From an uncultured Sphingomonadaceae bacterium (GTDB lineage: Bacteria > Pseudomonadota > Alphaproteobacteria > Sphingomonadales > Sphingomonadaceae), in the NCBI GenBank assembly GCA_947501695.1, contig CANMWO010000002.1, forward strand, positions 573,327-637,326: DNA of 64,000 nt, in the 5' to 3' direction. The position numbers and the translations under genes are program-made. Of the stretch, positions 28,065-60,485 are shown one piece after another. How positions within the stretch are numbered: the stretch's first letter is position 1; every line of letters starts with the position of its first letter. A model generated the notes under the pieces. The model saw nothing but the letters and a program-made list of their open reading frames with translations, did not search any database and was not told the DNA's origin.

Positions 28065-28568
28065 ATGAAATCAACTTTGATAGCCGCCGTACTTGCAATC
28101 ACGCTCCCCATGGCCTCTCCCGCAAATGCGCTTGATGGTCAGGCAGAAATGTCGCCAACAGATGAGCAGATGATCGTCGAGTGGGGTAACAAGTGGCAGC
28201 AGTTGTTCGAGGCTGGTGATATCGAGCAGATGCGCGATATGTATGAACCCGACGCGGTTCTGATGGCCCATGGCGCGTTGCCGCAAACCGGCGTTGATGA
28301 AATCCTGTCATTTCTGGGCCGCAACAAAGCCGCTGGCAACAGAGTCACCATCGATTTTGCCAATGAAGACATCACCATCGACGGCCAGCGCGCTTATCTA
28401 ACCGCCAAATATTGGATGACAATCACCTTAGCCAACAGTCAAGTTCTGGACTTCAAAGGCCGATCCTTTCTGGTTTATAAGAAAAGTGGCGAGGGTCAGT
28501 GGCGGCTGTGGCGCGATATGGATAATCAGGCACCAGACGTGGCGGTGGAAGAACGCCCTACCCGTTAA
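28065..28568 (+). CDS. exported SnoaL/DUF4440 (YybH-like) protein
   Basis: Signal peptide MKSTLIAAVLAITLPMASPANA; YEPDAVLM, GQWRLWRDMDN. Confidence 0.78.
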   Translation: MKSTLIAAVLAITLPMASPANALDGQAEMSPTDEQMIVEWGNKWQQLFEAGDIEQMRDMYEPDAVLMAHGALPQTGVDEILSFLGRNKAAGNRVTIDFANEDITIDGQRAYLTAKYWMTITLANSQVLDFKGRSFLVYKKSGEGQWRLWRDMDNQAPDVAVEERPTR

Positions 28569-29467
28569 CCGATTTCAATCAGTTCCAACAGTTCACCAGC
28601 CGGACCATAAGCAGTCGCCGTTCGACGATCCCGATAAAGCGCCCCTGATCGGATCACAGGTGGAGCGATCCAGTCAATCTGGATCGCATCCAGATTGGAG
28701 ACGGCCAGCGTCACGAGCGCATTTCCAGGTGGCAACATTCCGGCATGCTTTGGTCGCAGCGTTGCTTCTTCGGGATAATCATCCACTTCAACAATCGGCA
28801 AGCGTTCGATCTGGACCATGGTCAAATCAGACACTGTTCCTGCCGGCTTTCCGAACGCTTCATTGATCATGGTATATTCCAACGTATAGGTATCGCCTTC
28901 TGTCAAATGAAGCTGATCGCGATACCAGTTCACGGTTTGCACGCGGTCCTGAGCCGCTAAAATGACGATGAATATGTGATCTGTCAGCGACCGCGCTTTG
29001 GGCAGATCTGTTGTTGGTGTATCCTCCCGCACCTCATTTAGGTAAATCATTTCGCGACCGGGGCCGAGTGCCTGCATCGGCACAAAATAGGGTAGAATAT
29101 CAATTTCCTTGGGCGGCCCGATAATATCAAAGCTACTGCCTTCCAAGCGCCCGGGCCAACCGAAGACATCTTCAACCGTTAATTCATAGGCCGCCCAGCC
29201 ATAAGTTGTGGTCGGTTTAAAATCGGGATGGGCAGGCTGCTCGACAAGGCGGATGAAGCAATCAGCGCCGCTAGTCGGCTGCAAGACGGCCATCGGTGCT
29301 CCGGCTATCTTTGGACAGTCCCAGCTTTGCGCCAGATCTTCGGTCAATGTGCCACTTTCCACAAGCTGCATGCCCAGCACATCATGATAATCTTTCAGAG
29401 CCACTTCCAGATTCGGGACAGTGACAACACCGCCCAATATCGAACCATGTTGCAAAGCATGTGTCAT
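28565..29467 (-). CDS. two-domain VOC family protein
   Basis: Two repeats (VVTVPNLEVALKDYHDVLG / IVILAAQDRVQTVNWYRDQL), end GPAGELLELIE. Confidence 0.72.
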   Translation of the reverse strand: MTHALQHGSILGGVVTVPNLEVALKDYHDVLGMQLVESGTLTEDLAQSWDCPKIAGAPMAVLQPTSGADCFIRLVEQPAHPDFKPTTTYGWAAYELTVEDVFGWPGRLEGSSFDIIGPPKEIDILPYFVPMQALGPGREMIYLNEVREDTPTTDLPKARSLTDHIFIVILAAQDRVQTVNWYRDQLHLTEGDTYTLEYTMINEAFGKPAGTVSDLTMVQIERLPIVEVDDYPEEATLRPKHAGMLPPGNALVTLAVSNLDAIQIDWIAPPVIRSGALYRDRRTATAYGPAGELLELIEIG

Positions 29468-29468: not shown

Positions 29469-30233
29469 TCAAAACTCCGGTTTTCTCTTTTCCATGAAAG
29501 CGCTCACGCCCTCTTTGAAATCATCGCTTTCAAAAGCAGAGTCAAACAACCGCTCCGTCTCCGCATCATCATCGGCTTGCCCGTCCAATATCCGTTTGAT
29601 GATGGATTTGCTCATGGTCTGGCTGTGCGAAGAAACCGACGCCATAGTGTTCGCTAACGCTTCAGCCTCGCTATAGGGATCATCAACCAGCAAGGTAATC
29701 AAGCCGATATCCAAGGCTTCCTGTGCTGACAGCAATTGCCCGGTGAATAATATCCGCTTCGCTTGCGATGGTCCGACCAGATCGACGAGCAATTTGGTAT
29801 CGTGCAATGGATAGACCAGCCCCAGTTTGGAAGGCGTAATTCCGAAACGTGCTTTCGGACCAGCCACACGCATGTCGCAGGCCAGCGCTATGCCGCAACC
29901 ACCGCCGACACAATCACCATCGATGATCGCGATAGTCGGCTTGGGTGCCTGCGCTAGCTCATGCTGTACCTTACCAATGGCCGCCTGATTTTTGGCCCGC
30001 CATTCAGGATCGGTAGAGCCAGTTGCAAATTCACCAATATCGGCACCGGCACAAAAGGCGCTGTCCTTTCGGCTTGCATGCAAGGTCAACACGCGGATCG
30101 CATCGTCGGCCATTGCATCAGCCAGCAATTCGGGCAGCAGTTCCCACATCGCTTGATTAAACGCATTGCGCTTTTCCGGCCGGTCAATGATCAGATGTGC
30201 GACCTTGCCCTCTTTTTCGAGCCGCAATGTCAT
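29469..30233 (-). CDS. enoyl-CoA hydratase/isomerase (crotonase)
   Basis: RPEKRNAF, FCAGADIGEF, IDGDCVGGGCGIALACDMR, FGITPSKLGL, EGVSAFMEKRKPEF. Confidence 0.93.
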   Translation of the reverse strand: MTLRLEKEGKVAHLIIDRPEKRNAFNQAMWELLPELLADAMADDAIRVLTLHASRKDSAFCAGADIGEFATGSTDPEWRAKNQAAIGKVQHELAQAPKPTIAIIDGDCVGGGCGIALACDMRVAGPKARFGITPSKLGLVYPLHDTKLLVDLVGPSQAKRILFTGQLLSAQEALDIGLITLLVDDPYSEAEALANTMASVSSHSQTMSKSIIKRILDGQADDDAETERLFDSAFESDDFKEGVSAFMEKRKPEF

Positions 30234-31096
30234 GCAGGATCAACCTTCGCCAGATGCTGTGCAATCTGATGCCGGGTGGTCACCCAGACATGTTTTTTCG
30301 ACCGCACATGTTTCAGAAATTCTTCGAACGCCCAAATCCGGCCCGGACGACCAATGATGCGTAGATGCAGGCCGAGCGACATCATCTTGGGATTGCCTTC
30401 TTCGCCTTCGCGATAGACTTGATCAAAATTGCGCTTGGCATAATCCAGCCATTGCTGCGGTGTCATTGCCGGGTCGGTCCACATTTTCATATCATTGCTA
30501 TCGAGCTGATAGGGCACAATCGCAATCGGTTTTTCCGGAACCGTCTCCTTGTCCCAGAACGGAATATCGCCCGAATAATCATCCATATGATAGGCGAAGC
30601 CCTCTTCGATCAACAGGCGGCGGGTATTATCGGTATGGAAATAGCGCGACAACCATCCATAGGGCCGCGTGCCCGTGGTTTTCTCAATCGATGAAACAGC
30701 CTTGCGAATGAAATCGCGTTCCTTTTCCTCATCCATCTTGAACTGATGCACCCAGCGATAGCCATGGCTTACTGGTTCATGGCCCATGTCGGCGATAGCC
30801 TCGGCAATCTCGGGATGATTTTCCAGACTCATCGCGGCGACGGTCCAGCTGGCCATAATCTCATATTCTTTCAGTAGCTTAACGATGCGCGGCGCACCCG
30901 CCTTGATACCATAGAGATAGTTGCTCTCATTGCCATAATTGCGGATCGGCGATTTAATGTGGATGCCCAGCTCATCAACCGGTTCCATTCCGCGATCGCC
31001 GCGCGCAATCGTCATTTCACTGCCTTCTTCAACATTGACGACAATGCTCAGCGCCATTTTCGCATCGTCTGGCCAGTCCATCCGTTCTTCGATCAA
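30230..31096 (-). CDS. PuuE/allantoinase-like polysaccharide-deacetylase-fold amidohydrolase
   Basis: VVNVEEGSE, ESNYLYGIKAG, SHGYRW, RPYGWLSR, MMSLGLHLRIIGRPGR. Confidence 0.88.
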   Translation of the reverse strand: MIEERMDWPDDAKMALSIVVNVEEGSEMTIARGDRGMEPVDELGIHIKSPIRNYGNESNYLYGIKAGAPRIVKLLKEYEIMASWTVAAMSLENHPEIAEAIADMGHEPVSHGYRWVHQFKMDEEKERDFIRKAVSSIEKTTGTRPYGWLSRYFHTDNTRRLLIEEGFAYHMDDYSGDIPFWDKETVPEKPIAIVPYQLDSNDMKMWTDPAMTPQQWLDYAKRNFDQVYREGEEGNPKMMSLGLHLRIIGRPGRIWAFEEFLKHVRSKKHVWVTTRHQIAQHLAKVDPA

Positions 31097-31896
31097 TGCA
31101 TTTCCTCCCCGCCGGAAACGTTAAGCGCCTCTCCTGTAACATAAAAGGCATCGTCGCTAGCCAACCATGCACAGGCAGCTGCCGTATCCGATGGCAAACC
31201 GGGCCGCCCCATCGGATTTTTCGTGCTCATGTTAGCGAGATAGGCTTCGACATTTTCAAAACCGAGCAGCTTGGAAAAATATTCATTCTGCTGGGCGCCA
31301 AGACCGGTGGTCACATGATTGGGGCAAACTGCGTTGACCGTAATGCCGTGCGTACCAAGCTCCACTGCGCTGGCCCGGGTAAGGCCCACCATGCCATGTT
31401 TGGAACTCACATAAGCGGGCAGATGCGGGAAGCCGGTTTTTGCGGCTTGTGATGCAATGTTGATGATGCGGCCACCATTGCCTGCTGCAACCATCGCTTT
31501 GGCAGCCGCCTGGGTACAGTAAAACGCGCCGGATAGATTCACACCGATGACCTGATCCCATTCCTTGGCTGTATCGACCTCAAGCAGCGGCTTCATCATA
31601 AAACCGATACCGGCATTGTTGACGAAAATATCAACCGCACCAAAGGCATCCACGCTTTGATCGACCAAGGCCTGACATTGCACCGCATTACTGACATCAC
31701 AGGCGATGGTCGCGACTTTGGCGCCACGCCCACGTAATTCTTCAGCGACCCCTTCTTCCTGATCGCCGATGGCAAGGTCTGAGACGACACAATTGGCGCC
31801 TTCATCAGCAAAGCGTTGCAATATGCCTTGTCCCAGCCCCTTTTCCTTTCCGGAACCGGTAACGACGATCGTCTTTCCTGCAAATTTCCCGGACAT
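31093..31896 (-). CDS. short-chain dehydrogenase/reductase
   Basis: TGSGKEKGLG, FVNNAG, IASQA, YVSSK, VNAVCP. Confidence 0.92.
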   Translation of the reverse strand: MSGKFAGKTIVVTGSGKEKGLGQGILQRFADEGANCVVSDLAIGDQEEGVAEELRGRGAKVATIACDVSNAVQCQALVDQSVDAFGAVDIFVNNAGIGFMMKPLLEVDTAKEWDQVIGVNLSGAFYCTQAAAKAMVAAGNGGRIINIASQAAKTGFPHLPAYVSSKHGMVGLTRASAVELGTHGITVNAVCPNHVTTGLGAQQNEYFSKLLGFENVEAYLANMSTKNPMGRPGLPSDTAAACAWLASDDAFYVTGEALNVSGGEEMH

Positions 31897-32204
31897 TAGA
31901 GATCTTCTGTAAGTATGAATTGTGGGCCGTCGGCATAGTCCTGGAAAGGTGCCGCCATCGCTTGAAATTCTGGGTCCGACACATCGGTGACAAATTCATC
32001 CATGCCGGTAATATCGATAATCTCGAAATATTCGTAAGGCGACGGATCATCCGAACCGAACAGGCCGGTTGCTTTGTGGACGGTGAAAGACGTGACCGAA
32101 CTCAGCGCGCTGGCTGCGGGAATATCGCGTGTTTTCGCCCACTCCTCATATTCACCGATATCGACGCCTTCTTTCAGGTTAAACAAAACAATGATGCGCA
32201 TCAT
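31896..32204 (-). CDS. RedY/PigK/HapK-like (EthD-type dimeric alpha+beta barrel) protein
   Basis: IIVLFNLKEGVD..EYEEWAKTRDIP...L.SV..F.V......PYEYFEIIDI resembles the REDY-like HapK family from memory; needs HMM confirmation. Confidence 0.68.
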   Translation of the reverse strand: MMRIIVLFNLKEGVDIGEYEEWAKTRDIPAASALSSVTSFTVHKATGLFGSDDPSPYEYFEIIDITGMDEFVTDVSDPEFQAMAAPFQDYADGPQFILTEDL

Positions 32205-33412
32205 CTCTCTCCTCTATATGTTTCCAAAAAAACTTCTGGCACGCGATAGGCGGACAGCTTTTCGTCCAGCTCTCGCGCTAGTGCAAATAGCCCCAGTTCA
32301 TTACCTGCAGCGCCGATGAGCTGCATGCCAACCGGCAAGCCATCGCTTGACCAACCTGCGGGGATACTGATCGCGGGTAATCCGGCGATATTGGCTAAGC
32401 AAGTAAAGTCGGCCTGATTGGCTGGTGCCTTATCGTCATGGCTGAATGCGACTTGCGGCGCGGTAGGTAGCAAAATCGCGCCATGTTGCTCCACTACCGC
32501 CCTGATAGCATCGGTTGTTTCGGCGAGAGTTTTCTGGTCTTCCGCTAAGTCAGCAGCACTGCGTTCCGTGCCAAAGGTCAGCAGAAACTTGAGATGGTCA
32601 GACAGGCCGTCAGGGTTATTTTTCAGTACATCTGCCAGTTCTTGGGACAGGCCCAGCGAGGACAGGATAAACCCGGCAAAACGGATGCGGGTCAGCGGGT
32701 GCGGCAAGGTAAACTTCTGTTTGGCTCCAACGGCCTCCCGAGCCCTTTCGTAGCCTTCAAGCACAGCGGGCTCACAGTCCACGCCGCCAAGATTTTCTAA
32801 TAATGCTATATTTTCAATGACTTGCGGATCAGCGAGATTCATCAATACCCGCGAAACCGTCTCCAAGTCCTCCAGTGATCGCGCCAGCGGACCGATGCTG
32901 TCGAGCGATGAATCCACAATCTCAAGTCCATCCTGACTGATCGCACCGGCGGTCGGTTTCAGACCATAGATGCCGCAATAGGCCGCCGGAATCCGCACCG
33001 ATCCCATCGTGTCCGTACCCAATGCAGCATCGCAAAGTCCTGCCGCCACCGCAGCACCGCTGCCACCCGAAGAACCACCCGGCGTATAACTGATCTTGTG
33101 CGGATTATGGGTCGCACCGAAAAACGGATTGTCCGTCTTGGCACCAAGCGCCGCTTCTTCCATGTTGAGCGTGCCGATTATCGCAGCGCCAGCCGCGCGC
33201 AGTTTCGCAACAGCTTCGGCGTCCTTACCGGCGATGCGATCCTTGTAAGCCTTCAAGCCGCCAGTCCAGGGCAATCCCTCAACCGCAATATTGGCTTTGA
33301 TGCCAATAGTCAGATTACTCAGCGGCCCGTCACCAAGCCGCGCATCCCGATCGAAATCGGTAAAGGCATTTAGCGCAGCATTAGCACTTTCAAGATCATC
33401 CCAATGGAGCAT
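32201..33412 (-). CDS. amidase (amidase-signature family)
   Basis: IGIKANI, TPGGSSGGSGAAVA, GTDTMGSVRIPAAYCG (Lys-cisSer-Ser triad). Confidence 0.92.
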   Translation of the reverse strand: MLHWDDLESANAALNAFTDFDRDARLGDGPLSNLTIGIKANIAVEGLPWTGGLKAYKDRIAGKDAEAVAKLRAAGAAIIGTLNMEEAALGAKTDNPFFGATHNPHKISYTPGGSSGGSGAAVAAGLCDAALGTDTMGSVRIPAAYCGIYGLKPTAGAISQDGLEIVDSSLDSIGPLARSLEDLETVSRVLMNLADPQVIENIALLENLGGVDCEPAVLEGYERAREAVGAKQKFTLPHPLTRIRFAGFILSSLGLSQELADVLKNNPDGLSDHLKFLLTFGTERSAADLAEDQKTLAETTDAIRAVVEQHGAILLPTAPQVAFSHDDKAPANQADFTCLANIAGLPAISIPAGWSSDGLPVGMQLIGAAGNELGLFALARELDEKLSAYRVPEVFLETYRGER

Positions 33413-33420: not shown

Positions 33421-34782
33421 TCATAGCCCCCGCTCGTCAATCAGGCGAATCGGCTTTTGCCTTGTATCAATTTGCGTAGCCTTGGCCGTAGCACCAACAT
33501 CGACAAGTTGCACAGCTACCTCAATGCCCAATCCCTTGCGCAACAGATCAACGGTTTGTGCATGATTGCTATCGCCGCGACTTTCCAATGTCACATGCAT
33601 GTCATCTCGTCCGGCGGCGTCTCGCGTCACGCGGCAGACATATTCACCTGTCAGATCATCCCGCCCTTCAATGATCGCACCAATAGCGTGAGGAAAAATG
33701 TTGATACCGCGCAGCTTGACCATATTATCGCTGCGGCCCTTGAAACCGGTAATCCGCTTGAACACCATCCCGGTGGCATTGCTGTCGGTGCGTTCCTCGG
33801 TAATATCATGGGTGTTGAACCGGATACAGGGCGCGATGTCGTCCTTAAACAGGCATGTAACGACCATGTCACCCGTTTCGCCAGGTGCTACTGGCGCGCC
33901 GGTATCGACATTCAACAATTCCAGATATTGTGCATCTTCCCAAACATACATGCCGTCGCGTTCCGGTCCCTCTCCGGCGATGCTGCCGGTGTCACCGACG
34001 CCGTACCAATCAAAAGCTTTGGCCCCCTGCCAAGCCGCTTCGGTTGAGGCACGATCTTCGGTCCCCAGATGACCGATGATCATTTTCAAATTGATCCGGT
34101 CAAACAATTCTTCTGCTGCCGCGACATCTCCCAATTTGCGGATATAGTCGACAAAACCAACCATGCAGGTAACTTTGAAATCGGCCATCAGATTGACCTG
34201 GTTGATCGACCGAGTTTCTATCCCTGTACCTGCGCTCAAGAACAGGGCGTTAGTAAAGTGGGTCACGGCCTCGCGAATGTAATGCCCGCCGTTGATCATC
34301 CCGTGGCCATATACCGACTGCACGACATCATCCCGGCCCAACCCCATCCAGCGATACATCCGCCCGACTAGCAGATTGGTAATTTCTCTGCCCTTGGGGC
34401 CAAACATCAAGGGTTGCGGTCGCCCAGTCGTCCCCGAAGTAGTATGGAAAACCACCGGTTCGTCGCCGCGACCATCAAAATCACCATAAGGTGGAAATTC
34501 ATTGACCGAGGCCATCAAATCGCTCTTGTCATAAACAGGAAGCTTAATAATGTCGGCCAAGCTCGCAATGTCACCAGCTTCAACACCCTGATTTCCCCAC
34601 AGGCGTTGATAGAAAGGAATCTCCCAACCACGCTTCATGAGTTTCAGGAACCGCTTTTCCTGCAAAGCATGAAGCTCGTCTCGCGACATGCCGACATATC
34701 GGTTCGTAAAGGCTTCACCGATCGGATAATCTGCCAGCATCTGTTTGGCATCAAAGGCTTCGAAATAAGTTGGGAAGGTCAT
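33421..34782 (-). CDS. phenylacetate--CoA ligase-like (PaaK-family) adenylate-forming enzyme
   Basis: LPVYDKSDL, HTTSGTTGRP, WYGVGD, GRSDNMVKLRGINIFP. Confidence 0.87.
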   Translation of the reverse strand: MTFPTYFEAFDAKQMLADYPIGEAFTNRYVGMSRDELHALQEKRFLKLMKRGWEIPFYQRLWGNQGVEAGDIASLADIIKLPVYDKSDLMASVNEFPPYGDFDGRGDEPVVFHTTSGTTGRPQPLMFGPKGREITNLLVGRMYRWMGLGRDDVVQSVYGHGMINGGHYIREAVTHFTNALFLSAGTGIETRSINQVNLMADFKVTCMVGFVDYIRKLGDVAAAEELFDRINLKMIIGHLGTEDRASTEAAWQGAKAFDWYGVGDTGSIAGEGPERDGMYVWEDAQYLELLNVDTGAPVAPGETGDMVVTCLFKDDIAPCIRFNTHDITEERTDSNATGMVFKRITGFKGRSDNMVKLRGINIFPHAIGAIIEGRDDLTGEYVCRVTRDAAGRDDMHVTLESRGDSNHAQTVDLLRKGLGIEVAVQLVDVGATAKATQIDTRQKPIRLIDERGL

Positions 34783-36086
34783 CGGGGCTCCGTCGCATAG
34801 GCTAAAGGATCGTCAAATATTCTGTTGTCGCAATCGTTACTGGCAAGATTGCGAGCAAGATCACATTTGGCTTTGGTCTGGGCATCGGACATTGGCGCGG
34901 TAGGGCTGCCAAGATTGTCTGTGATTACGCGCTTAACCTGCGTGCCATCGGAAAGAGTGATGTTCAGTTGCTGGGGCGCCAAAGCATTGTGATCAGAATT
35001 ATCATCAATCCGAACAGTCACTTTCCCGCCAAGCCCCGCCAATGCCGGATTGGCAAATTCGGCTGCCGTGAAACAGCGCGGATCGATCATCCGATCCCGT
35101 AGCATCAATGGCACAAGAAAGGGCAGGCATAGCCGCGCATAGCTTGGTGTCATATCCGTCTTATAGGGCCGCCCAACGAGTCGGTGGATCAACGGTGGCG
35201 CAGCGACATCGACCGATTGCACCATTGCCGGATCAAGAGATCCATCGCGGAGCATGTTATCAATAACGCCCAATATTCCATGGCTGGCCCGCCCGGATGG
35301 GAAAGGCTTTATACTGACGTCTTCAATCAGCCATTTGGCGCCAACATTCTTAGTATAGAGAGAAATATCGCCGGGCTCGAACAGTTTAAAATAACCATAT
35401 GGCCCTTCTAGCGCATCATGCGGTCCATTCATGCCTGCTTTGGCGAGATCGACTGCGGTAATCGCGGCCCGGGACGCACTGGCAATTTGCAGAGGCAAGG
35501 CAATTGATGCCTCTATATGGGCCTGCATCGTACCGGCAGCCTGGGAATAAGCGAGACCCAGGACATCAGCGAAGCGTTCGGCAGGCAGGCTTTCAAGCCG
35601 CGCCACCGCTAAAGCCGCACCGATAATGCCTGCCGTAGCTGGGCGGAAAAACTGCATGCCGCCAGTCGCCGCAACACCCATACCGCTTGCGATATCAACG
35701 CCTACGGCCAGCGCAGTTAGCAACTGCTCCGAGTCACATCCACCCATGCGATCTGCGCTTGCGAGCAAGGCCGCAGTAACAACGGACATAGCATGAACCA
35801 CCGCCGGTTCATGCACAGCATCCCATTCGAGGCAATGGATTGCAAAGCCATTAAACCAGGCTGCTGAGGGCGTTGGCATGCGGTCTTCCGAACCCAGTAA
35901 TCTTGCATCAGCACCTATACCCCACCCCTTCAGCGCGGGCATCATGGATTGCCCTGCAGCGGAAGCGGCACCCGAAGCGCCTATAGCTAGGGTGTCTCCG
36001 AGCAGATGGAGAGTTCCAGCTTTTGTGCTTGCGGGCAAGACATGATCTACCGCAGCAAAATCTAGGATTTGTCGTGTCGCGGTCAT
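34779..36086 (-). CDS. MmgE/PrpD family protein
   Basis: NGFAIHCLEWDAVH...HAMS, KPFPSGRASH, DNLGSPTAPM. Confidence 0.88.
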   Translation of the reverse strand: MTATRQILDFAAVDHVLPASTKAGTLHLLGDTLAIGASGAASAAGQSMMPALKGWGIGADARLLGSEDRMPTPSAAWFNGFAIHCLEWDAVHEPAVVHAMSVVTAALLASADRMGGCDSEQLLTALAVGVDIASGMGVAATGGMQFFRPATAGIIGAALAVARLESLPAERFADVLGLAYSQAAGTMQAHIEASIALPLQIASASRAAITAVDLAKAGMNGPHDALEGPYGYFKLFEPGDISLYTKNVGAKWLIEDVSIKPFPSGRASHGILGVIDNMLRDGSLDPAMVQSVDVAAPPLIHRLVGRPYKTDMTPSYARLCLPFLVPLMLRDRMIDPRCFTAAEFANPALAGLGGKVTVRIDDNSDHNALAPQQLNITLSDGTQVKRVITDNLGSPTAPMSDAQTKAKCDLARNLASNDCDNRIFDDPLAYATEPR

Positions 36087-37312
36087 GACAGCCAGTCTTG
36101 CAGCATCTGGTGAATTTCGTGCGGATTATCGGTTTTAAGCGCCAGATCAATAGCGCGGTCCGCTTCTTTTTCCGACAGTCCGCCCCAGGCAACAAGCGCG
36201 CGAGTCTTATTGATCATGCCTTCGTAAGACAAAGGTCGTTCTGGATCTCCGAGCGTATCGACCAGTTCGATGCTTTCACCGCCTCCGCTAACCCGCGCGC
36301 CATAATGATCTGGGTATCGTGCGGTGATATCGCTCGCTTCCGAAACTTTGATACGGCTGCGTGCTTTGGCGAGCGCAGCGATCGCTTCTGGTTCAAAATC
36401 TGCTAGCTGTGGGACGCCGCGTTCGGCGACGATGGCCAAAGCGTGCTGGATCGAGAATTTTGCATCAATGACGGATAGCGGATCAGGTCGGTCACAAAAA
36501 CTGATCGCATCGGCATAGGTTTCAACATAAATATCGCCATCGAGCACTTGTAGCTTAGCTTTAAGTTTCAACGCGGCATCGATAGCTGGATGGGCGTGAC
36601 GGCATGCCCCCCATGGCTTGAAGCTGACTTCATGGATACGCCATTGATCCGGGAAGGTCATCGGTTTTGGGCTTTCACAAGTTGCAGCGTAAAGTCCTTG
36701 CGGCCCTTCGAGTATAAACCTAGGGCCTATAGCCCCATCTTCCGCTGCCATTCCGGCTTCGACCCCACTCATATGGGCGTGCGATATATGCCATTGCTTG
36801 GCATCCGAATGCTCATGTCGCATCTGCCACAATCCGCCTGCAATACTGCCTACGAGCCCCATGGCGTTGACCATGACCTGCTGATCCAATCCCTCGTCTC
36901 CCATAGAGACGATGGCTGCACCAAACGCCCCGGCCGTCGCGGTATTGTGATAAAAGGAATAATGCCGGTCATCGAAGGTTGACCCAATTGCTATGATTGC
37001 TTCATATCCACGGACGGCTGCATCAAGGAACGAATTCATCGTTCCCGCAGGACTTTCAAGCGCCGGCCAAATGACTGGGCCGGGGTGCAGGATTGAGCTT
37101 CGGTGCACATCATCCATCTCTAGGACATTGCCCAGCCATGCAGACCGGCTGCTGAAATCTCCCAGCTTCTTTTTCGCCTGTCCTGAATTGTGCGCTCCAG
37201 CCACACAGCCAAGCCAATCGAGCAAATGCAGTCTTGCCCGTTGCCGGGTCGCCTCATCAACGGGTCGCATCAAATGTACGGACAATTTCTCGGTCAGGCT
37301 CTCTTGCGTCAT
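36083..37312 (-). CDS. MmgE/PrpD family protein (second, tandem)
   Basis: ARLHLLDWLGC, LEMDDVH...HPGPVIWP, FKPWGACRHAHPAID, AKFSIQ, LGDPERPLS. Confidence 0.88.
   Translation of the reverse strand: MTQESLTEKLSVHLMRPVDEATRQRARLHLLDWLGCVAGAHNSGQAKKKLGDFSSRSAWLGNVLEMDDVHRSSILHPGPVIWPALESPAGTMNSFLDAAVRGYEAIIAIGSTFDDRHYSFYHNTATAGAFGAAIVSMGDEGLDQQVMVNAMGLVGSIAGGLWQMRHEHSDAKQWHISHAHMSGVEAGMAAEDGAIGPRFILEGPQGLYAATCESPKPMTFPDQWRIHEVSFKPWGACRHAHPAIDAALKLKAKLQVLDGDIYVETYADAISFCDRPDPLSVIDAKFSIQHALAIVAERGVPQLADFEPEAIAALAKARSRIKVSEASDITARYPDHYGARVSGGGESIELVDTLGDPERPLSYEGMINKTRALVAWGGLSEKEADRAIDLALKTDNPHEIHQMLQDWLS
37274..37285. promoter_or_regulatory. degenerate operator (ATGTACGGACAA), possible autoregulatory site of gntR
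   Basis: 2 mismatches to consensus; lies inside the 5' end of the divergent MmgE/PrpD gene, 53 bp upstream of the gntR ATG. Confidence 0.45.
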
Positions 37313-37338
37313 CGCCGCACCCGTCCTAAGACTGAGCT

Positions 37339-38100
37339 ATGTCTGGGAGAGAAAATTTGGCCACCAAAAGCTCGGCGAAGAAAAAGCCTCGCTATCTGGA
37401 ATTGGCCGATGAACTGCGTGAAGCAGTTTTGCGCGGTGACTATTCCGATCCTGGCGATTTCCCAACCGAATCCGTCTTGTGCAAAAAATACGATGTGAGC
37501 CGTTTCACCGTCAGAGAGGCTTTGCGCAAACTGACAGCAGAGGGTCTGATCACCCGTAAACGTGGTTCGGGAACGGTGGTTCAGCCAGCAACCGCTCGCG
37601 CCGGTGCGCTGCATCAACCGCTCAGCAATGTCGGTGAGATTTTGCAGTATGCGCATGACACTACGATCAGCTTTGAACCAGGAAAACCTGGCGCGATTCC
37701 TCACGATGTCGCTGAACAGATTGATACCAAAGCCAAAGGTGATTGGTTTACTTTTCGCGGCAAGCGCACAAAGCTCGGTCGCAAGCGGCCGATTGCTGTG
37801 ACCGAAGCATGGGTTCATCCGGAGCTGGCGGACGCGGTCGCACAGATTGATATCAACGCCAAAACCCTTTTTGGGCAGATCGAAACTTTGGGGCAAGTCA
37901 GTGTGACTCGAGTGACGCAGGATATTCAAGCGATCAAGGGCACGAAAAAGATATTGGCGGACCTCGGCTTGGAAAAGGGCGATCCTGTGCTGCGTATCTT
38001 GCGCTGCTATTTTGACGAAACCGACCGGATGTTTGAGATTTCGGCGAGCTATCATCCCGGCGAACGCTTTGCCTATTCGATGCATATCGAGGTCGATTAG
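37339..38100 (+). CDS. GntR family regulator, HutC subfamily (wHTH + UTRA)
   Basis: PRYLELADELRE...FPTESVLCKKYDVSRFTVREAL...RKRGSGTVV; UTRA-type C-terminus (VTQDIQA, PVLRILRCYF, SYHPGERF). Confidence 0.92.
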   Translation: MSGRENLATKSSAKKKPRYLELADELREAVLRGDYSDPGDFPTESVLCKKYDVSRFTVREALRKLTAEGLITRKRGSGTVVQPATARAGALHQPLSNVGEILQYAHDTTISFEPGKPGAIPHDVAEQIDTKAKGDWFTFRGKRTKLGRKRPIAVTEAWVHPELADAVAQIDINAKTLFGQIETLGQVSVTRVTQDIQAIKGTKKILADLGLEKGDPVLRILRCYFDETDRMFEISASYHPGERFAYSMHIEVD

Positions 38101-38108
38101 AGCCCGCT

Positions 38109-39197
38109 TCATTGCAACTTATCGACGATTGGGGCATCTTCCGCTTGCCAATTCTTTTCCGACGCAAAGCGAAACGACGGCCCAATCTGATGGCTACCAT
38201 GGGCCTCGATCAATAGGCCGCGCTCGCGTAGGAAATCCTGATCCAGTGCGTCCCGAAAATCGAGAACGGGGGAGAAAGCAACATCCTTATCGGCGAACCA
38301 AGCGACCCATTCATCACGGCTTTTGGTTGCGAAGGTTCCGCGCAAATAGGCAATTAGGGGCGCTTGCCCGGCGCCGGGCTCAGCCTCGGCGAGTGGCAAT
38401 AAATCTATTCTATCCAATGCTTTAAGAAGGTTTCGCGCGAATTTTATTTCCCGAGCGCCAAGCACGACATGCTTGCCATCGGCGGTTTCGTAAACATTGT
38501 AAAAGGCCGCGCCACCCAGAGAGCGTTGTGATTGAGATTGTGGTGATGCGCCTCCGGAAATGGCCGACCCAGCGGTATGGGCACACCAAGGGAGCATGGA
38601 GTCAAACATCGCGATATCGATATAGTCGCCCTCGCCCGATTTCTCCCGACCGATCAACGCCATAAGCACCGCTGACAAACCATTCAGACCAGCGGCCATA
38701 TCCGCTGAAGGCACACCGGGTACCACCGGCGTTCCGTCCGCACCATCGTTGACCGACAGAAAGCCGGACAGGGCCTGCACTGCGAGGTCATGCGCGGGAT
38801 GTTGCGCCATTTCGCCCTCTTGCCCAAAGGCAGAGATAGAACAATAGACAAGCTTCGGAAAGCGCGCCGATACAGCTCCGTAGTCAAAACCGAGCCGCTT
38901 CATCACACCGGGCCGAAATCCCTCGATCATCACGTCAGCATCCGCCAACAAATCCCACAACTGCGCTCGACCTTCGTCGGATTTGAGATCCAGCGTCAGC
39001 GCCTGCTTGCCGCGATTGAGATTGCGGAACCAAACCGATTGACCCGCTTCCATTGGTTCCATTGTCCGCGCAGGATCGCCAGCAGGCGGCTCGACCTTGA
39101 TCACTTCAGCGCCATGGTCGGCCATCATCATGCTGAGCATCGGGCCCGGCAGAAAAAGCGAGAGGTCAATGACCTTGATACCCGTTAGCTTGGCCAT
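38109..39197 (-). CDS. CaiB/BaiF family III CoA transferase
   Basis: VIDLSLFLPGP, VIKVEPPAGDPAR, NLNRGK, EGFRPGV, AHDLAVQALSG. Confidence 0.92.
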   Translation of the reverse strand: MAKLTGIKVIDLSLFLPGPMLSMMMADHGAEVIKVEPPAGDPARTMEPMEAGQSVWFRNLNRGKQALTLDLKSDEGRAQLWDLLADADVMIEGFRPGVMKRLGFDYGAVSARFPKLVYCSISAFGQEGEMAQHPAHDLAVQALSGFLSVNDGADGTPVVPGVPSADMAAGLNGLSAVLMALIGREKSGEGDYIDIAMFDSMLPWCAHTAGSAISGGASPQSQSQRSLGGAAFYNVYETADGKHVVLGAREIKFARNLLKALDRIDLLPLAEAEPGAGQAPLIAYLRGTFATKSRDEWVAWFADKDVAFSPVLDFRDALDQDFLRERGLLIEAHGSHQIGPSFRFASEKNWQAEDAPIVDKLQ

Positions 39198-39204
39198 TGG
39201 AGTT

Positions 39205-40398
39205 TCAGACTATCCCTTTCGCGCGCAGATCCGCAATCGCATCCGCATCATAACCAGCCTCGGCCAATACCGCATCACTGTCAGCGCCGAGCAATGGCCC
39301 CGCGCGGTTCGGCAAACGTTCGCCATTCAATTTGATCGGGCTGGACAATACATTCATGTCCGCGCGATCCGGATGGCTGACTGTATCACGCATGCCGATG
39401 GTTTTCAGCCAAGGACTATCCAGCGCCTGATCTAAACCATAAACGGGGGCGATAGGCATCAATCCCTGAAGCAATTCCAGCCAATGCGCCACCGGCTGGG
39501 CAGCAAAAACCTCACCCAACAGATCCGAAAGCGCCGCGCGATTGGTCAGGCGATTGGCCGGTGTATCAAAGCGCGGGTCGGTGATGAGCGCTTCGTAACC
39601 AATCCGCTCACACAGGATCGTCCAGAATTTCGGCAACTGTGCCATGACAAACATCCAGCCATCCGCCGCCTTGAACATCTGACTGGGCGTCGCCGAAGGA
39701 TGGGCACCATAAGGCGCGCGGCCCGTGACATCCTGTTCATTCATATACCAAAGTGCTGGATAGCTGGTCTGATGCACAGCCGCCGATAACAGATCGACAT
39801 CGACATCACAGCCTTCGCCGGACCGCTGCGAATCCAGCAAGGCAGCGAGCAAACCAACGGCAGCCATCGTGCCCGTCATGAAATCCACCATCGACAGGCC
39901 AAAGCGCACCGGCGGCCCATCGGGATCACCGGTTAGCGCGCAGAAACCGGCTTCGGCCTGCATCAAATAGTCATAGCCCGGCCATTTCGACCGTTCATTG
40001 CCGCGACCATAGGCGGAGATATGCGCGCAAACGATCGCGGGATTAACCGCTTTCAATGCGTCATAGTTCAGGCCAACTTTATCCGGCACGTCACCGCGCA
40101 GATTATTCGCTACGACATGCGCGTCCTTAGCGAGATCATGCAGCACCTTCTGGCCTTCATCAGTCCGCAGGTCGAGGGTGAGCGAACGCTTGTTGAGATT
40201 GAAACTTTGAAAATAGAGGCTTTCCTGTTCGCGCAACCAGTGCGGCCCAACATGCCGCGCCGTGTCGCCACCTTTTGGCGGTTCGATCTTAATGACGTCA
40301 GCGCCCATTTGCGCTAGGAACATGGTGCCATAAGGACCGGCACCATATTGTTCCGCGGAAAGAACGCGAAAGCCTTTGAGGGGTTGTTTTACGCTCAC
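39205..40398 (-). CDS. CaiB/BaiF family III CoA transferase (second, tandem)
   Basis: EQYGAGPYG, GADVIKIEPP.GGD, FNLNKRS, GYDYLMQAEAG. Confidence 0.92.
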   Translation of the reverse strand: MSVKQPLKGFRVLSAEQYGAGPYGTMFLAQMGADVIKIEPPKGGDTARHVGPHWLREQESLYFQSFNLNKRSLTLDLRTDEGQKVLHDLAKDAHVVANNLRGDVPDKVGLNYDALKAVNPAIVCAHISAYGRGNERSKWPGYDYLMQAEAGFCALTGDPDGPPVRFGLSMVDFMTGTMAAVGLLAALLDSQRSGEGCDVDVDLLSAAVHQTSYPALWYMNEQDVTGRAPYGAHPSATPSQMFKAADGWMFVMAQLPKFWTILCERIGYEALITDPRFDTPANRLTNRAALSDLLGEVFAAQPVAHWLELLQGLMPIAPVYGLDQALDSPWLKTIGMRDTVSHPDRADMNVLSSPIKLNGERLPNRAGPLLGADSDAVLAEAGYDADAIADLRAKGIV

Positions 40399-41573
40399 GC
40401 AGGGTTCCTCTTAACCCACTGTTTGGAAATGATCATTCGCTGCATCTCATTGGTACCCTCGCCAATGCACATGAGCAATGAATCGCGATAATAGCGTTCA
40501 ATCTCATATTCTTTGGAATAAGCATAGCCGCCATGGACGCGCATCGATTCCTCGGAATTGCGGACCGCCGCTTCCGAGGCAAAATATTTCGCCATACCTG
40601 CTTCCAGATCACAGCGTTCGCCGCGATCATAAGCTTCGGCAGCATCCAGCGTCAGCAAGCGCGCAGCCCGCGCCCGCGTTACCATTTCGCCGAGCTTCAA
40701 CTGGATCGCCTGATGGTCGGCTATCGGTTTGCCCATGGTCTCGCGCAGCTGCGCATATTCCGTCGCCAACCGCAACGAGCCCTCCGCCAAGCCAACGCCG
40801 CGTGCGGCCACATTGATCCTGCCAAGTTCCAGACCACCAGTGGCCTGAAAAAAACCTTGCCCTTCAACGCCGCCGATCAGGTTCTCGGCGGGAATACGAT
40901 AATTGTCGAACATCAACTCTGCGCTGTCGATACTGTTATAACCGAGTTTCTTGAACTTCTTGCCAACTGTAAAGCCCTCGCCCTTGGGCGCGATCATAAG
41001 GCTCATACCTTTGTAGCGCGGGTCCGCTTTCGGATCGGTTTTAACCAGCAGCGCAAAACAGCTGCCATTGATGCCGTTAGAAATCCAAGTCTTGGTACCG
41101 TTGATCACATAATCATCGCCATCCCTTACGGCAGTCGTGCGGATCGCCTGCAAATCGGTACCCGCATTGGGCTCAGTCAAAGCCAGTCCGCCGCGAATTT
41201 CACCGCTGGCAAATTTGGGTAGCCATTTGGCTTTTTGCTCGGCCGTGCCAAAACGCTCGACCGCACAGGCCATGATCAGGTGCGAATTGAAAATGCCAGT
41301 GATCGCCATCCAGTGAGACGCGATCTCGGCAACAATTTTCGCATAGCTGGTCGCCGGTAAGCCCAGGCCTCCATATTGCTCGCCGATAGTGGCACCGAAC
41401 AATCCCATGTCAGCCATTTCACCAACAAGCTGTTCGGGCCATTTATCCTCATGATCATGTTCCATGACCACGGGCTTTACCGAACGCATAATCCATTTCT
41501 GGATCGCATCCATGAAAGCCTGTTCCTCTTCCGGGTCAATCATATGCTGCGCAGTATCAATTGCCGTTGCCAT
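40395..41573 (-). CDS. acyl-CoA dehydrogenase
   Basis: LALTEPNAGTDL, INGTKTWISNG, GRINVAARGVG, RVHGGYAYSKEY.IERYYRD, IGEGTNEMQR. Confidence 0.93.
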   Translation of the reverse strand: MATAIDTAQHMIDPEEEQAFMDAIQKWIMRSVKPVVMEHDHEDKWPEQLVGEMADMGLFGATIGEQYGGLGLPATSYAKIVAEIASHWMAITGIFNSHLIMACAVERFGTAEQKAKWLPKFASGEIRGGLALTEPNAGTDLQAIRTTAVRDGDDYVINGTKTWISNGINGSCFALLVKTDPKADPRYKGMSLMIAPKGEGFTVGKKFKKLGYNSIDSAELMFDNYRIPAENLIGGVEGQGFFQATGGLELGRINVAARGVGLAEGSLRLATEYAQLRETMGKPIADHQAIQLKLGEMVTRARAARLLTLDAAEAYDRGERCDLEAGMAKYFASEAAVRNSEESMRVHGGYAYSKEYEIERYYRDSLLMCIGEGTNEMQRMIISKQWVKRNPA

Positions 41574-41652
41574 TATCGTCGCTCCTGAATATCTTAAAAT
41601 TGGGGCCCCTCCCCCATTTTATTCTAGTCGCCAGCCTATTTAGTTGGCCGGT

Positions 41653-42162
41653 TTAATCGTCGGCTCCGCCAAATCCGCGTTTCCAGATCAGCATCGTGCG
41701 TTCAAAAGTACACACAACTTTATCATCCTGATTTTTGCCAATGGTCTTAATTGTTACGATGCCCTGCTCCGGTCGCGAGGCGGACTCTTTTTTGTTCAGA
41801 ACTTCGCTTTCGGCGTAAAGCGTGTCGCCGGGAAATAGCGGATGAGTAAGGCGGATTTTATCCCAACCCAAATTGGCCACGGCTTTCTGGCTGGTATCCG
41901 AAACGCTCATTCCAACCATCAATGCAACAGTCAACGGAGAGCAGACCAAAGGCTTTTTGAACTCGGTTTTCTTGGCAAATTCATAATCGAAATGCGCCGG
42001 ATGGGTGTTCATTGTCAGCAAAGTGAAATGCACATTGTCGGTATCGGTGATCGTCCGGCCGGGACGATGCTCATAGATATGACCGACTTCAAAATCTTCA
42101 TAATAACGCCCGAAAGTTTCGCGGAAACGTCCCGGGCTGACTTCAATTACTCCATCACGCAT
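41653..42162 (-). CDS. MaoC-family (R)-specific hydratase/dehydratase (itaconyl-CoA hydratase/RipB-like)
   Basis: GRYYEDFEVG.IYEHRPGRTITDTDN..FTLLTMNTHPAHFD, ANLGWD, PLFPGDTLY. Confidence 0.88.
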   Translation of the reverse strand: MRDGVIEVSPGRFRETFGRYYEDFEVGHIYEHRPGRTITDTDNVHFTLLTMNTHPAHFDYEFAKKTEFKKPLVCSPLTVALMVGMSVSDTSQKAVANLGWDKIRLTHPLFPGDTLYAESEVLNKKESASRPEQGIVTIKTIGKNQDDKVVCTFERTMLIWKRGFGGADD

Positions 42163-42197
42163 GTATTTATCCTTATCTGTAAAATCGATTTAAATGT

Positions 42198-43007
42198 TCA
42201 GGCCGTAGCAACGACATGACGATATCGTTGCATAACCGGTGCTTCCAACATACGGCCATTATGACTAATTGCTTTGCCGCCAGCTTCATCAAATGCATTG
42301 ATCGCATCTATGGCTTCGGTTATTTCGGCAGCCGTAGGTTTCATTGCGGTTGCAATGGCGGAAATTTGCTTGGGATGGATAGCTGCTTTGGCATGAAAAC
42401 CCATCGCCTTCGCTTTGCGGGATTCTTCTTCCAAACCCGCTTCGTTGCCCATATCAATATAGGGCACATCAATCGCAGTTACAGCAGCCGAGGCGCAGCA
42501 TAATATGAACCCCCCACGCGCTGCCAAAAGTGGTTCCCATTCGAGCTTAGTTCCAAGCTCAGCAGAAAAATCACCGCCGCCGAACATCATAGCGGTAACC
42601 CCGGCACTCGCGGCAATAGCATCTCCTGCGCGCAGTCCTTTGACCGTTTCGATAAGCGGGACCAGACCATCTATCCGGTCACCCATAATAGCGTGAACAA
42701 TTTCAACCTCTGTTGGACTTTCCACCATCGGCAGAAAAATCAAAGAAGGAAGATGTTTTGCTGTGGATAGCGCGAGCAAGTCAGCGAGACCGGCTGCGGT
42801 TTTAAGACCATTGATTCGCACCGCTGTTTTCGAACGATCGAGTGTATTTAATGCGTCCAGAACGGATTCGCGTGCACTGTCTTTCTGATCCGCAGGGACC
42901 GAATCCTCCAGATCGATACAGATCAGATCAGCATCGCTATTCGCTGCTTTTTCAAAGCGTTCAGGGCGATTGGCAGGTACAAAAAGGAAGTTGGTAAAAC
43001 CGGACAT
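42198..43007 (-). CDS. CitE/HpcH-family CoA-ester lyase (citramalyl-/malyl-CoA lyase-like)
   Basis: LFVPANRPERFEKA, IDLEDSVP, VRING, PLIET..G, FGGGDFSAELG, GFHAKAAIHPKQ, GRMLEAP. Confidence 0.9.
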   Translation of the reverse strand: MSGFTNFLFVPANRPERFEKAANSDADLICIDLEDSVPADQKDSARESVLDALNTLDRSKTAVRINGLKTAAGLADLLALSTAKHLPSLIFLPMVESPTEVEIVHAIMGDRIDGLVPLIETVKGLRAGDAIAASAGVTAMMFGGGDFSAELGTKLEWEPLLAARGGFILCCASAAVTAIDVPYIDMGNEAGLEEESRKAKAMGFHAKAAIHPKQISAIATAMKPTAAEITEAIDAINAFDEAGGKAISHNGRMLEAPVMQRYRHVVATA

Positions 43008-43049: not shown

Positions 43050-43061
43050 TTGTCCGGACAA
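43050..43061. promoter_or_regulatory. operator site 6 (TTGTCCGGACAA)
   Basis: Exact palindrome in the divergent gap between citE-like (-) and DUF1838-like (+). Confidence 0.85.
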
Positions 43062-59537: not shown

Positions 59538-59577
59538 TGCTGTGCCTTCATTTTTGGGCCTTCATTTCTGGGCCTTC
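59534..59577 (-). repeat. three tandem 14-bp units (AGGCMCARMAATGA) at the deacetylase/ALDH junction
   Basis: Minus strand reads aggcccagaaatga aggcccaaaaatga aggcacagcaatga. Confidence 0.8.
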
Positions 59578-60485
59578 CAGCTATCGAGTATCGCATCACC
59601 CCGTGCGAACCCGATATCATTGTGCTCAGCAACGCCGGCAATCAACTTCTCAAAACTGCTAATGCGATAGGGTAGACCCATAATATAAGGCGTTAGGTGC
59701 ATGGGTAGCATTCGCCCGCCATTTTGCTCCGCCTCCGCGAGCAACCAATTGGCCGCATCGGTCATCTGCTGTGCATAGCTGTCAACCGATTGCTGCTGGA
59801 CATTGATGATCTGACGATCCGATAGTTCGTGGTTGAGCGGGATATTGGTAATCGCTCCCGAATCTGTCTGAAACGCATAAGGCAATTCGTCATTGGCCCA
59901 ATCACACATATAATCGACACCGGCCTCGGCGAGCAATTTTGCGGTGTTGAAACTTTGCGAACGCGCTATCGACAACCAGCCGCGTGGGCGCGTTCCGATC
60001 ACTTTTTCCAGCGCGGTGAGCGAACCTTCGATTAGCGCTTTCTCATCCGCTTCAGCCAGTCCGCTCGCAATAGTGCCGTTCATGTCGGTGCTATGCGCGA
60101 TAATCTCATGGCCGCCGGAGATGATGTCCTCAATCAACTGCGGATAGCGCTGGGCGATGACGCTGTTGGTCGCGACCGAAATCTTCGCGCCAACCTTCTC
60201 AAACGCACCAAGCAACCGGTAAATCCCGATCCGCGTGCCATATTCGCGCGCGGTATAATGGCGATAGTCGGGATAAGCGGTCTGCATATGCCCCGGCGCG
60301 CGGAACGGATTGTCGTTGGGCACCATCGGGAAATATTCGAGGGAGATGACCGGCCATATCATCAGCTTTTTGTCGCCCGGCCATTGCACCGGCTTGCGAT
60401 CAAACAGATTGCTGTACGGATAATAGTCATGGTCCATTCCGTGGCGGCGCTTGGGATAGTCGAGATAGCTGGCATCAAGGCTCAT
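59562..60485 (-). CDS. polysaccharide-deacetylase-fold (PuuE/PgdA-like) amidohydrolase
   Basis: VISLEYF, REYGTRIGIYRL, HEIIAH, PRGWLS, DWANDELP, HLTPYIMGLPYR. Confidence 0.87.
   Translation of the reverse strand: MSLDASYLDYPKRRHGMDHDYYPYSNLFDRKPVQWPGDKKLMIWPVISLEYFPMVPNDNPFRAPGHMQTAYPDYRHYTAREYGTRIGIYRLLGAFEKVGAKISVATNSVIAQRYPQLIEDIISGGHEIIAHSTDMNGTIASGLAEADEKALIEGSLTALEKVIGTRPRGWLSIARSQSFNTAKLLAEAGVDYMCDWANDELPYAFQTDSGAITNIPLNHELSDRQIINVQQQSVDSYAQQMTDAANWLLAEAEQNGGRMLPMHLTPYIMGLPYRISSFEKLIAGVAEHNDIGFARGDAILDSWKAQK

Follow-up and report, generated by a model that had tools for sequence, protein, structure and literature searches.

The window analysed here is a stretch of 64,000 nucleotides from an uncultured Sphingomonadaceae bacterium, a marine sphingomonad (contig CANMWO010000002.1 of assembly GCA_947501695.1), and it carries a tight run of minus-strand genes that spans positions 43073 down to 28565. 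Fourteen minus-strand genes make up one unit in this run, and seven of them, from the lyase gene to the gene for PrpD2, form the half that we refer to as the CoA module. The 14-gene cluster is widely conserved and uncharacterised, and its probable function is to break down a small ring compound that contains nitrogen. We give an even chance to the view that a small cyclic imide or lactam is degraded by a single conserved catabolic unit under GntR repression, of which the module is the CoA-dependent lower half. The reasoning behind this is that a hydrolysed substituted succinimide or maleimide is a C2/C3-substituted 1,4-dicarboxylate, as are all of the known substrates of the MmgE/PrpD enzymes. 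The evidence comprises the families of the encoded proteins, their conserved catalytic residues, the synteny of the cluster, a shared candidate operator and the physical fusion of both halves in other lineages. The cluster is an itaconate/methylsuccinate-type module that contains two extra paralogues, is wired to putative imide-opening chemistry and is widespread.

Gene families in the window were assigned by Pfam, by NCBIfam profile scores and by scores against PDB chains, given in bits. An earlier note on this DNA had described positions 34779-43007 as an itaconate-pathway-like module composed of a lyase, a MaoC hydratase, an acyl-CoA dehydrogenase, two CoA_transf_3 proteins and two MmgE/PrpD proteins, and Pfam places all of these families at those coordinates. 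The PaaK-like ligase, the crotonase and the short-chain dehydrogenase (SDR) that it listed as additions are also present, outside that range (Table 1). Its comparison with the itaconate cluster of Pseudomonas aeruginosa is borne out as well, as five families are shared both with this cluster and with that of Cupriavidus necator (PMC9875883, PMC12290011). The same conserved unit further includes an amidase, a HapK-like protein, a PuuE-like hydrolase and a VOC-like protein of 300 amino acids, none of which the note had named. The coupling of the module to the PuuE-type ring hydrolase and the amidase is the strongest clue to its role.

Conservation and distribution

A scan of one genome per species gave 405 relatives of PrpD1, carried by members of the Sphingomonadales and the Steroidobacteraceae, and the best 80 loci were taken for comparison. 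The gene order CitE-MaoC-ACAD-CoAT1-CoAT2-(gntR antisense)-PrpD1-PrpD2-PaaK-amidase-HapK-SDR-deacetylase-ECH-VOC, in which CitE is the lyase, ACAD the acyl-CoA dehydrogenase, CoAT1 and CoAT2 the two family III CoA-transferase homologues, deacetylase the PuuE-like hydrolase and ECH the crotonase, repeats in every one of these loci that is long enough. This recurrence is far beyond chance. The gene for the 300-residue VOC-like protein is kept at the same place in 68 loci, the SDR gene is invariably adjacent to the PuuE-like gene, and the MaoC hydratase is encoded by the most conserved gene of the cluster, with 72-100% identity across loci. The nearest loci belong to uncultured Sphingomonadaceae and to Parasphingorhabdus. 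Cultured strains that have the cluster include Parasphingorhabdus marina DSM 22363, Parasphingorhabdus cellanae and Sphingobium chungbukense DJ77. Within an even sample of the order, an orthologue of PrpD1 is found in 15 of 218 good genomes, distributed over 12 of 78 genera, and the cluster is therefore accessory and patchy.

Nitrogen-handling genes and their fusion to the module

The PuuE-like hydrolase scores 250 bits against the NCBIfam PuuE profile, for which the cut-off is 425, and hence it is not an equivalog of the PuuE allantoinase. Its matches among solved structures are 3CL6 (219 bits) and the imidase-related 3S6O (206 bits). In PuuE and in the imidase BpIH, a Glu-His-Trp triad replaces the Asp-His-His metal triad (PMC11424739), and the same replacement is found in the hydrolase of the cluster. 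Across 68 sequences N21, E23, H111 and W115 do not vary, and H244 is invariant as well; together they make up an Asn-x-Glu motif, a His-x3-Trp motif and a later His. In the amidase, K39, S114 and S138 are invariant, leaving the Lys-Ser-Ser set intact. The PaaK-like ligase scores 157-161 bits against the NCBIfam PaaK profiles, compared with cut-offs of 646-700, and 154 bits against the PDB entry 4R1L.

A precedent for this combination of enzymes is found in the nicotinate catabolism of Aspergillus, in which HxnW (an SDR), HxnM (a PuuE-related imidase) and HxnN (an amidase) act on the series hydroxylactam, imide, half-amide and dicarboxylate (PMC9304392). Likened by enzyme type, the A. nidulans enzymes and those of the cluster are the same three, encoded side by side in the window. 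However, the Hxn pathway is fungal, opens a six-membered glutarimide ring to yield 2-hydroxyglutarate, and has no CoA module.

The two halves are physically joined in three distant genomes, which belong to another alphaproteobacterial family and to another class. In these, a single operon headed by HapK runs in the order HapK-SDR-PuuE-like-(VOC/CMD)-CitE-MaoC-ACAD-CoAT1-CoAT2, and in one of them the PrpD pair adjoins it. PrpD1 (46-47% identity) and the PaaK-like ligase (56-58%) occur in all four of the distant genomes that were searched, and in three of the four they lie about 1.4-1.5 kb apart, a spacing that would fit a PrpD2 gene between them.

Simpler relatives of the module were found through the hydratase. 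Plasmid p4 of Azospirillum brasilense (L089, 6930-14929) carries genes for a lyase, a MaoC hydratase, an MmgE/PrpD protein, an acyl-CoA dehydrogenase, a CoA transferase, a GntR regulator, a 69-residue protein and an amidase, with identities to the window of 61% for the dehydrogenase, 60% for the hydratase and 50% for the transferase when compared with CoAT1. A Halobaculum plasmid (L091, 5168-11036) encodes a formamidase/acetamidase, an MmgE/PrpD protein, an acyl-CoA dehydrogenase, a MaoC hydratase 54% identical to that of the window and a RipA-type transferase, and in Tistrella an amidase, a lyase and a MaoC hydratase are found together. An amidase thus recurs beside the module in all three of these relatives.

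Some further features of these loci may be recorded. In Azospirillum, the gene for the 69-residue protein overlaps the amidase gene, an arrangement that recalls the small-subunit/amidase pair AtzG-AtzE, and the Halobaculum cluster adjoins genes for a TRAP transporter. In one distant genome (G135, L093), a NicF-like amidase with a two-deacetylase cassette, represented in the window at 59562-62130, adjoins the operon, and in two others (L092 in G293 and L094 in G204) a homologue of a 414-residue methyltransferase (window 53307-54551) stands divergently beside HapK. As they lie beside the operon in these genomes, the window genes at 53307-54551 and 59562-62130 travel with the module.

Relation to the itaconate and methylsuccinate enzymes

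The lyase has RipC_Ccl as its top-scoring NCBIfam family, at 231 bits, which is under the equivalog cut-off of 375. Among solved structures it matches 3QLL (deposited as 'Citrate lyase', 173 bits) and then 5VXC (114 bits), which we take to be RipC of Yersinia pestis and human CLYBL, respectively. Residues E142 and D168 of the lyase are invariant. Similarly, RipB_Ich is the top family of the hydratase by a wide margin, although its 240 bits fall short of the equivalog cut-off of 340. The kinship with Yersinia RipC and RipB that had been proposed in the earlier note is therefore real, in that RipC/Ccl and RipB/Ich are the nearest of the curated families and solved structures. The window cluster nevertheless differs from RipABC, as it has no RipA-type gene (family I; acetyl-CoA hydrolase/transferase), both of its transferases belong to family III, the scores stay below the cut-offs and many extra genes are present.

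The acyl-CoA dehydrogenase finds its best structural match in 4IV6 (deposited as FadE3), at 399 bits, and scores 240 bits against 6ES9 (deposited as 'Acyl-CoA dehydrogenase'). The first of these is presumably from Mycobacterium smegmatis and, to our knowledge, no substrate has been assigned to it; the second we take to be the methylsuccinyl-C1-CoA dehydrogenase. Alignment with PA0879 of P. aeruginosa gave fragments of 32-67% identity, the reference being the machine-read supplement text of PMC12290011 with dropped letters, and on this comparison, limited by the damaged text, the enzyme of the cluster is not an orthologue of the PA0879-like (RS)-methylsuccinyl-C4-CoA dehydrogenase. In 301 genomes of the phylum, no bona fide Ccl that could serve as a source of reference clusters was found above the cut-off. 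Judged by their sequences, the cluster enzymes are relatives of the proven itaconate/methylsuccinate enzymes, and none appears to be an orthologue.

In Pseudomonas and Cupriavidus, the methylsuccinate route is made up of Msi, Ict, Mcd, Ich and Ccl (PMC12290011). The P. aeruginosa cluster PA0878-PA0883 and the five-gene cluster of C. necator (Ich, Mcd, Msi, Ict and Ccl, with the VOC lactonase PA0880) draw on the same families as the window, a VOC-fold protein included, and the logic of free-acid isomerisation, CoA transfer, dehydrogenation, hydration and C-C cleavage is likely to be shared. In contrast, no protein of the cluster appears to reach the orthologue level, and the window has two PrpD and two family III paralogues. 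It also has an antisense repressor gene in the middle of the run, genes for a TonB-dependent receptor and an MFS transporter alongside, and a module that is joined to the PuuE-type hydrolase, the amidase, the SDR, HapK, the PaaK-like ligase and the crotonase.

Two divergent pairs of paralogues

Both the family III proteins and the MmgE/PrpD proteins had been described in the earlier note as divergent, duplicated pairs. The divergence is clear, as CoAT1 and CoAT2 share 30% identity and PrpD1 and PrpD2 share 26%. Two members of each family are indeed present, and at these identities they are ancient, functionally distinct paralogues; a recent duplication of either pair is rejected on the same values.

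PrpD1 and PrpD2 both pass the gathering scores of PF03972 and PF19305 and are members of the MmgE/PrpD family. The residue set described for Msi, the methylsuccinate isomerase, consists of H88, E91, H102, Y148, H152, K202 and K266 (PMC12290011). PrpD1 keeps six of these seven residues, since E65, H76, Y118, H122, K172 and K232, all invariant or nearly so, match E91, H102, Y148, H152, K202 and K266, with N62 replacing H88. PrpD2 keeps four (H84, E87, H98 and K260), and in it M/L144, R148 and Leu take the place of the Tyr, His and Lys of the epimerases. The Msi reference used here was the synthetic gene from the supplement of PMC12290011, machine-read with dropped letters, and the alignments with it are fragmentary.

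An AlphaFold2 model of PrpD2 (pLDDT 93.8) has the two-domain fold and superposes best on the iminodisuccinate (IDS) epimerase 2HP0, with a TM score of 0.89; the cis-aconitate decarboxylases come next, and the 2-methylcitrate dehydratases fit worst. The pair thus resembles the epimerase branch of the family, namely IDS epimerase and (S)-(R)-methylsuccinate isomerase, through the fit of the PrpD2 model and through the His/Tyr two-base set of PrpD1. It departs from that branch in its low identity (20-35%), in the Asn that PrpD1 has for the first His, and in the loss from PrpD2 of the Tyr, of the second His (to Arg) and of one Lys. Between 79 and 93 positions are near-invariant in the orthologues of PrpD1 and PrpD2, and both therefore look like working enzymes with different pockets. 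A HMMER full-library search with PrpD1 as the query returned many closer uncharacterised relatives, and the 150 library representatives listed included none that was recognisable as Msi.

The two transferase homologues both belong to family III, with CoAT1 scoring 371 bits against PF02515 and having an invariant Asp172, and CoAT2 scoring 344 bits and having an invariant Asp166. CoAT1 is predicted to be a typical transferase. Both Asp172 and a GYD motif are kept across 74 sequences, and its best solved structure is a Brucella melitensis 'formyl-CoA transferase' that was crystallised with succinate (230 bits).

Instead of a transferase, CoAT2 may be a racemase-like protein of this family. His136, Asp137 and Asp166 are invariant in all 75 of its sequences, and His136 aligns with a Tyr in four transferases and with a His in the Far racemase of Mycobacterium tuberculosis. 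The stretch GGAxFYxxYxTxDG is common to CoAT2 and Far, and the length of CoAT2, 362 residues, is like that of the alpha-methylacyl-CoA racemases. The M. tuberculosis racemase MCR uses His126 and Asp156 as its acid-base pair, with Glu241 in support; CoAT2 resembles MCR and Far in the position of its His-Asp dyad and in having an equivalent of Asp156.

The retention of two members of each family has another possible explanation, raised in part by the earlier note, in which the pairs are obligate heteromers. In this case CoAT1 and CoAT2 would form a two-subunit transferase like BbsEF, the benzylsuccinate CoA-transferase, and PrpD1 and PrpD2 would form a heterodimeric isomerase with one regulatory or structural subunit. 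The tandem orders CoAT1-CoAT2 and PrpD1-PrpD2 are kept even in the distant genomes, the reading frames of PrpD1 and PrpD2 share 4 bp (36083-36086), BbsEF chains are among the structural relatives of the transferases, and the substitutions in the two PrpD proteins complement each other (N62 against H84, and H122 against R148). However, CoAT2 is cleanly missing, without a remnant, from four Sphingopyxis loci (L051, L057, L064 and L070) in which the remaining cluster genes are kept as far as the fetched stretch reaches. This argues against an obligate CoAT1/CoAT2 heteromer, which is unlikely, and favours an accessory role for CoAT2. In addition, each member of either pair keeps its own invariant catalytic-type residues. 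As far as is known, the active site of the solved MmgE/PrpD proteins lies within one chain, such that a partner could not complement it. Taken for both pairs together, obligate heteromers seem to us decidedly unlikely.

A proposed route and its alternatives

For an imide or lactam substrate, the route that we infer, in the order of its steps, its substrates and the parts it gives to PrpD2, CoAT2, the PaaK-like ligase, HapK, the crotonase and the VOC protein, would begin with the SDR, which would oxidise a hydroxylactam to the imide. The PuuE-type hydrolase would open the ring and the amidase would release ammonia, yielding a C2/C3-substituted diacid of the succinate or maleate type. PrpD1, with its epimerase-type residues, and PrpD2, with its altered pocket, would adjust the free acid or the half-amide. 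CoAT1 would then form the CoA ester, probably from succinyl-CoA, and CoAT2 would either racemise a 2-substituted acyl-CoA or activate a second substrate. The FadE3-like dehydrogenase would introduce a double bond, the Ich-like hydratase would add water and, finally, the Ccl-like lyase would cleave the product, yielding an acyl-CoA and a 2-oxo acid.

Several observations weigh against this route or against single steps in it. The PaaK-like ligase, the crotonase, the SDR and the dehydrogenase could serve in the beta-oxidation of a side chain or of the ring, which would change the order of the steps. In G135, and partly in G293, PrpD1 and the ligase lie away from the CitE operon, so that the coupling there is by co-occurrence only. 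For PrpD2, all of the 120 relatives listed are orthologues with generic names, mostly 'MmgE/PrpD family protein'. As for the racemase option, which hangs on one histidine and one motif of CoAT2, the protein keeps the transferase-like QAxSG, and sequence and Foldseek scores place transferases such as YfdE level with or ahead of the racemases, giving no separation. Its E237, the presumed equivalent of Glu241 of MCR, is also not conserved, with R, E, K, A and Q found at this position among the orthologues.

The remaining point concerns the lyase and the hydratase. As true itaconate enzymes are the nearest relatives of both, the real substrates could simply be itaconate, mesaconate or methylsuccinate, and the nitrogen-handling genes could have another purpose. 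Positions 38109-43007 would then be an alphaproteobacterial operon for these acids (Ict, a racemase, Mcd, Ich and Ccl), the PrpD pair would interconvert stereoisomers, and the nitrogen-handling genes would form a separate pathway that shares only the regulator. Such an operon would agree with RipB_Ich and RipC_Ccl as the best curated matches, with 3QLL as the best structure for the lyase, with the succinate-bound Brucella transferase as that for CoAT1, with the exact five-gene composition of the Azospirillum relative, and with the six Msi residues of PrpD1. It is harder to reconcile with scores so far under the equivalog cut-offs (231 against 375 and 240 against 340) and with a dehydrogenase that is not PA0879-like. 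The survey of Gonner et al. found Msi in 2 Sphingomonadales species only, whereas the present cluster occurs in hundreds. Moreover, other lineages show a fusion in which CitE directly follows HapK-SDR-PuuE, and an amidase recurs beside even the simple versions of the module. On balance we regard a plain itaconate-type operon as unlikely.

The broader idea in the earlier note, that the module handles other branched dicarboxylates, fits these results, because no enzyme of the cluster is an equivalog of the itaconate enzymes. The particular maleates that it named are chemically coherent candidates. Maleates of this kind could come from tetrapyrroles, and it is conceivable, if improbable, that the cluster lets bacteria degrade the monopyrrolic products formed when chlorophyll, haem and bilins are oxidised, that is, 3,4-disubstituted maleimides and hydroxylactams such as methyl-ethyl-maleimide, methyl-vinyl-maleimide and hematinic acid. 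Compounds of this kind occur in plants and herbivores (PMC7318184). In this version the SDR, the PuuE-like hydrolase and the amidase would give 2,3-disubstituted maleates, the PaaK-like ligase and the crotonase would handle the propionate side chain, and the CoA module would cleave the remainder to pyruvate and a short acyl-CoA. Such maleates are speculative substrates with a certain chemical attraction, as they resemble 2-methyl-cis-aconitate, for which MmgE/PrpD chemistry is natural. We found no literature on the present cluster or on bacterial maleimide catabolism.

The presence of two transferase homologues, a dehydrogenase, a crotonase and an SDR also calls to mind the beta-oxidation of benzylsuccinate. 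By analogy, the cluster might degrade an aryl- or alkyl-succinate, for instance (2-aminophenyl)succinate derived from an oxindole-type lactam, with two transferase subunits and with the lyase in place of a thiolase. The pair of transferases, the acyl-CoA dehydrogenase, the crotonase and the SDR would parallel BbsEF, BbsG, BbsH and BbsCD of that pathway, and both an arylacetate-type ligase of the PaaK kind and a lactam-opening hydrolase are present. However, no thiolase is found among the Pfam-assigned genes of the cluster, and in sphingomonads neither the crotonase nor the SDR stands beside the dehydrogenase. The conserved operon core of the distant genomes has MaoC and CitE and no crotonase, and the BbsEF chains are distant relatives, at 97-117 bits. 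We hold this explanation to be very unlikely. A reading of the cluster as carnitine-type (cai) was rejected, as cai has no lyase, MaoC hydratase, PrpD protein or ring hydrolase.

If an imide or lactam is indeed the substrate, hundreds of species of sphingomonads and their relatives would draw on the enzyme logic of itaconate and methylsuccinate breakdown, which was fully assigned only in 2023-2025, for the lower part of a pathway that degrades a nitrogen heterocycle. Azospirillum, Tistrella and haloarchaea would have simpler versions of it that are linked to an amidase. The identity of the substrate could reveal the recycling of a common natural imide or lactam in soil and sea. Other leads from the cluster are two MmgE/PrpD subfamilies, as yet uncharacterised, whose residue differences are defined; CoAT2, a family III protein that falls between transferases and racemases; and a regulon with a 12-bp candidate operator and a GntR repressor, in which the inducer would reveal what the substrate is.

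Layout of the cluster and its candidate operator

The coordinates of the genes and of the candidate operator are given in Table 1. The GntR/UTRA gene separates the CoAT genes from the PrpD genes and is antisense to both pairs; its position and orientation are retained in 76 loci. The gap between its start and that of PrpD1 is 26 bp and the gap between its stop and that of CoAT2 is 8 bp, and both are too short to hold a separate promoter or terminator. A minus-strand open reading frame (ORF) of 267 amino acids at 37309-38112 was considered as a gene and rejected, as it has no family match and overlaps the GntR/UTRA gene, of which it is the antisense shadow. The unmatched ORFs in the 80 flanks are likewise mostly antisense shadows, and clustering them gave no additional conserved family. 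Upstream of the cluster, the 80 loci usually have genes for a TonB-dependent receptor, an MFS transporter, an unknown membrane protein and a DUF1838 protein.

Table 1. Positions of the cluster genes and the candidate operator in the window
Feature	Position	Strand	Assignment
Candidate GntR-type operator TTGTCCGGACAA, 12-bp palindrome	43050-43061		Just upstream of lyase gene
CitE/Ccl-like acyl-CoA lyase	42198-43007	-	Pfam HpcH_HpaI 2e-33; NCBIfam RipC_Ccl best
MaoC/Ich-like (R)-specific enoyl-CoA hydratase	41653-42162	-	Pfam MC_hydratase, MaoC; NCBIfam RipB_Ich best
Acyl-CoA dehydrogenase, FadE3-like	40395-41573	-	Pfam ACAD N, M and C domains
CoAT1, family III CoA-transferase, 397 aa	39205-40398	-	Pfam CoA_transf_3 7e-111
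CoAT2, family III paralogue, 362 aa	38109-39197	-	PF02515; racemase-type His136-Asp137
GntR/UTRA (HutC-type) regulator	37339-38100	+	Pfam GntR and UTRA
PrpD1, MmgE/PrpD, 409 aa	36083-37312	-	Pfam MmgE_PrpD N and C domains
PrpD2, divergent MmgE/PrpD, 435 aa	34779-36086	-	Pfam MmgE_PrpD
PaaK-like acyl-CoA (adenylate-forming) ligase	33421-34782	-	Pfam AMP-binding_C_2
Amidase-signature amidase	32201-33412	-	Pfam Amidase 3e-84
HapK/REDY-like small protein	31896-32204	-	Pfam HapK 1.5e-11
SDR	31093-31896	-	Pfam adh_short
PuuE-type metal-independent cyclic amidohydrolase (imidase/allantoinase fold; polysaccharide-deacetylase fold)	30230-31096	-	NCBIfam PuuE, PDB matches
Crotonase-family enzyme	29469-30233	-	Pfam ECH_1 9e-48
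VOC/glyoxalase-like protein, 300 aa, final gene of run	28565-29467	-	Weak Pfam Glyoxalase match

The ORF of the lyase stays open up to a TTG codon at 43073, with ATG codons at 43022 and 43007. A start at the TTG would place both the candidate operator and a TTGACT hexamer inside the coding region, and one of the two ATG codons is therefore the likelier start. The operator copy at 43050 stands between this hexamer and the ATG codons, and of the 68 loci with this palindrome, most have the same site upstream of CitE. With one mismatch allowed, there are ten copies of TTGTCCGGACAA in the window, compared with an expected 0.12, and the cluster is putatively repressed by its own GntR protein through this element. 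The ten copies mark promoter gaps over about 46 kb, from 15865 to 62130 of the window, and the module therefore belongs to a much larger regulon.

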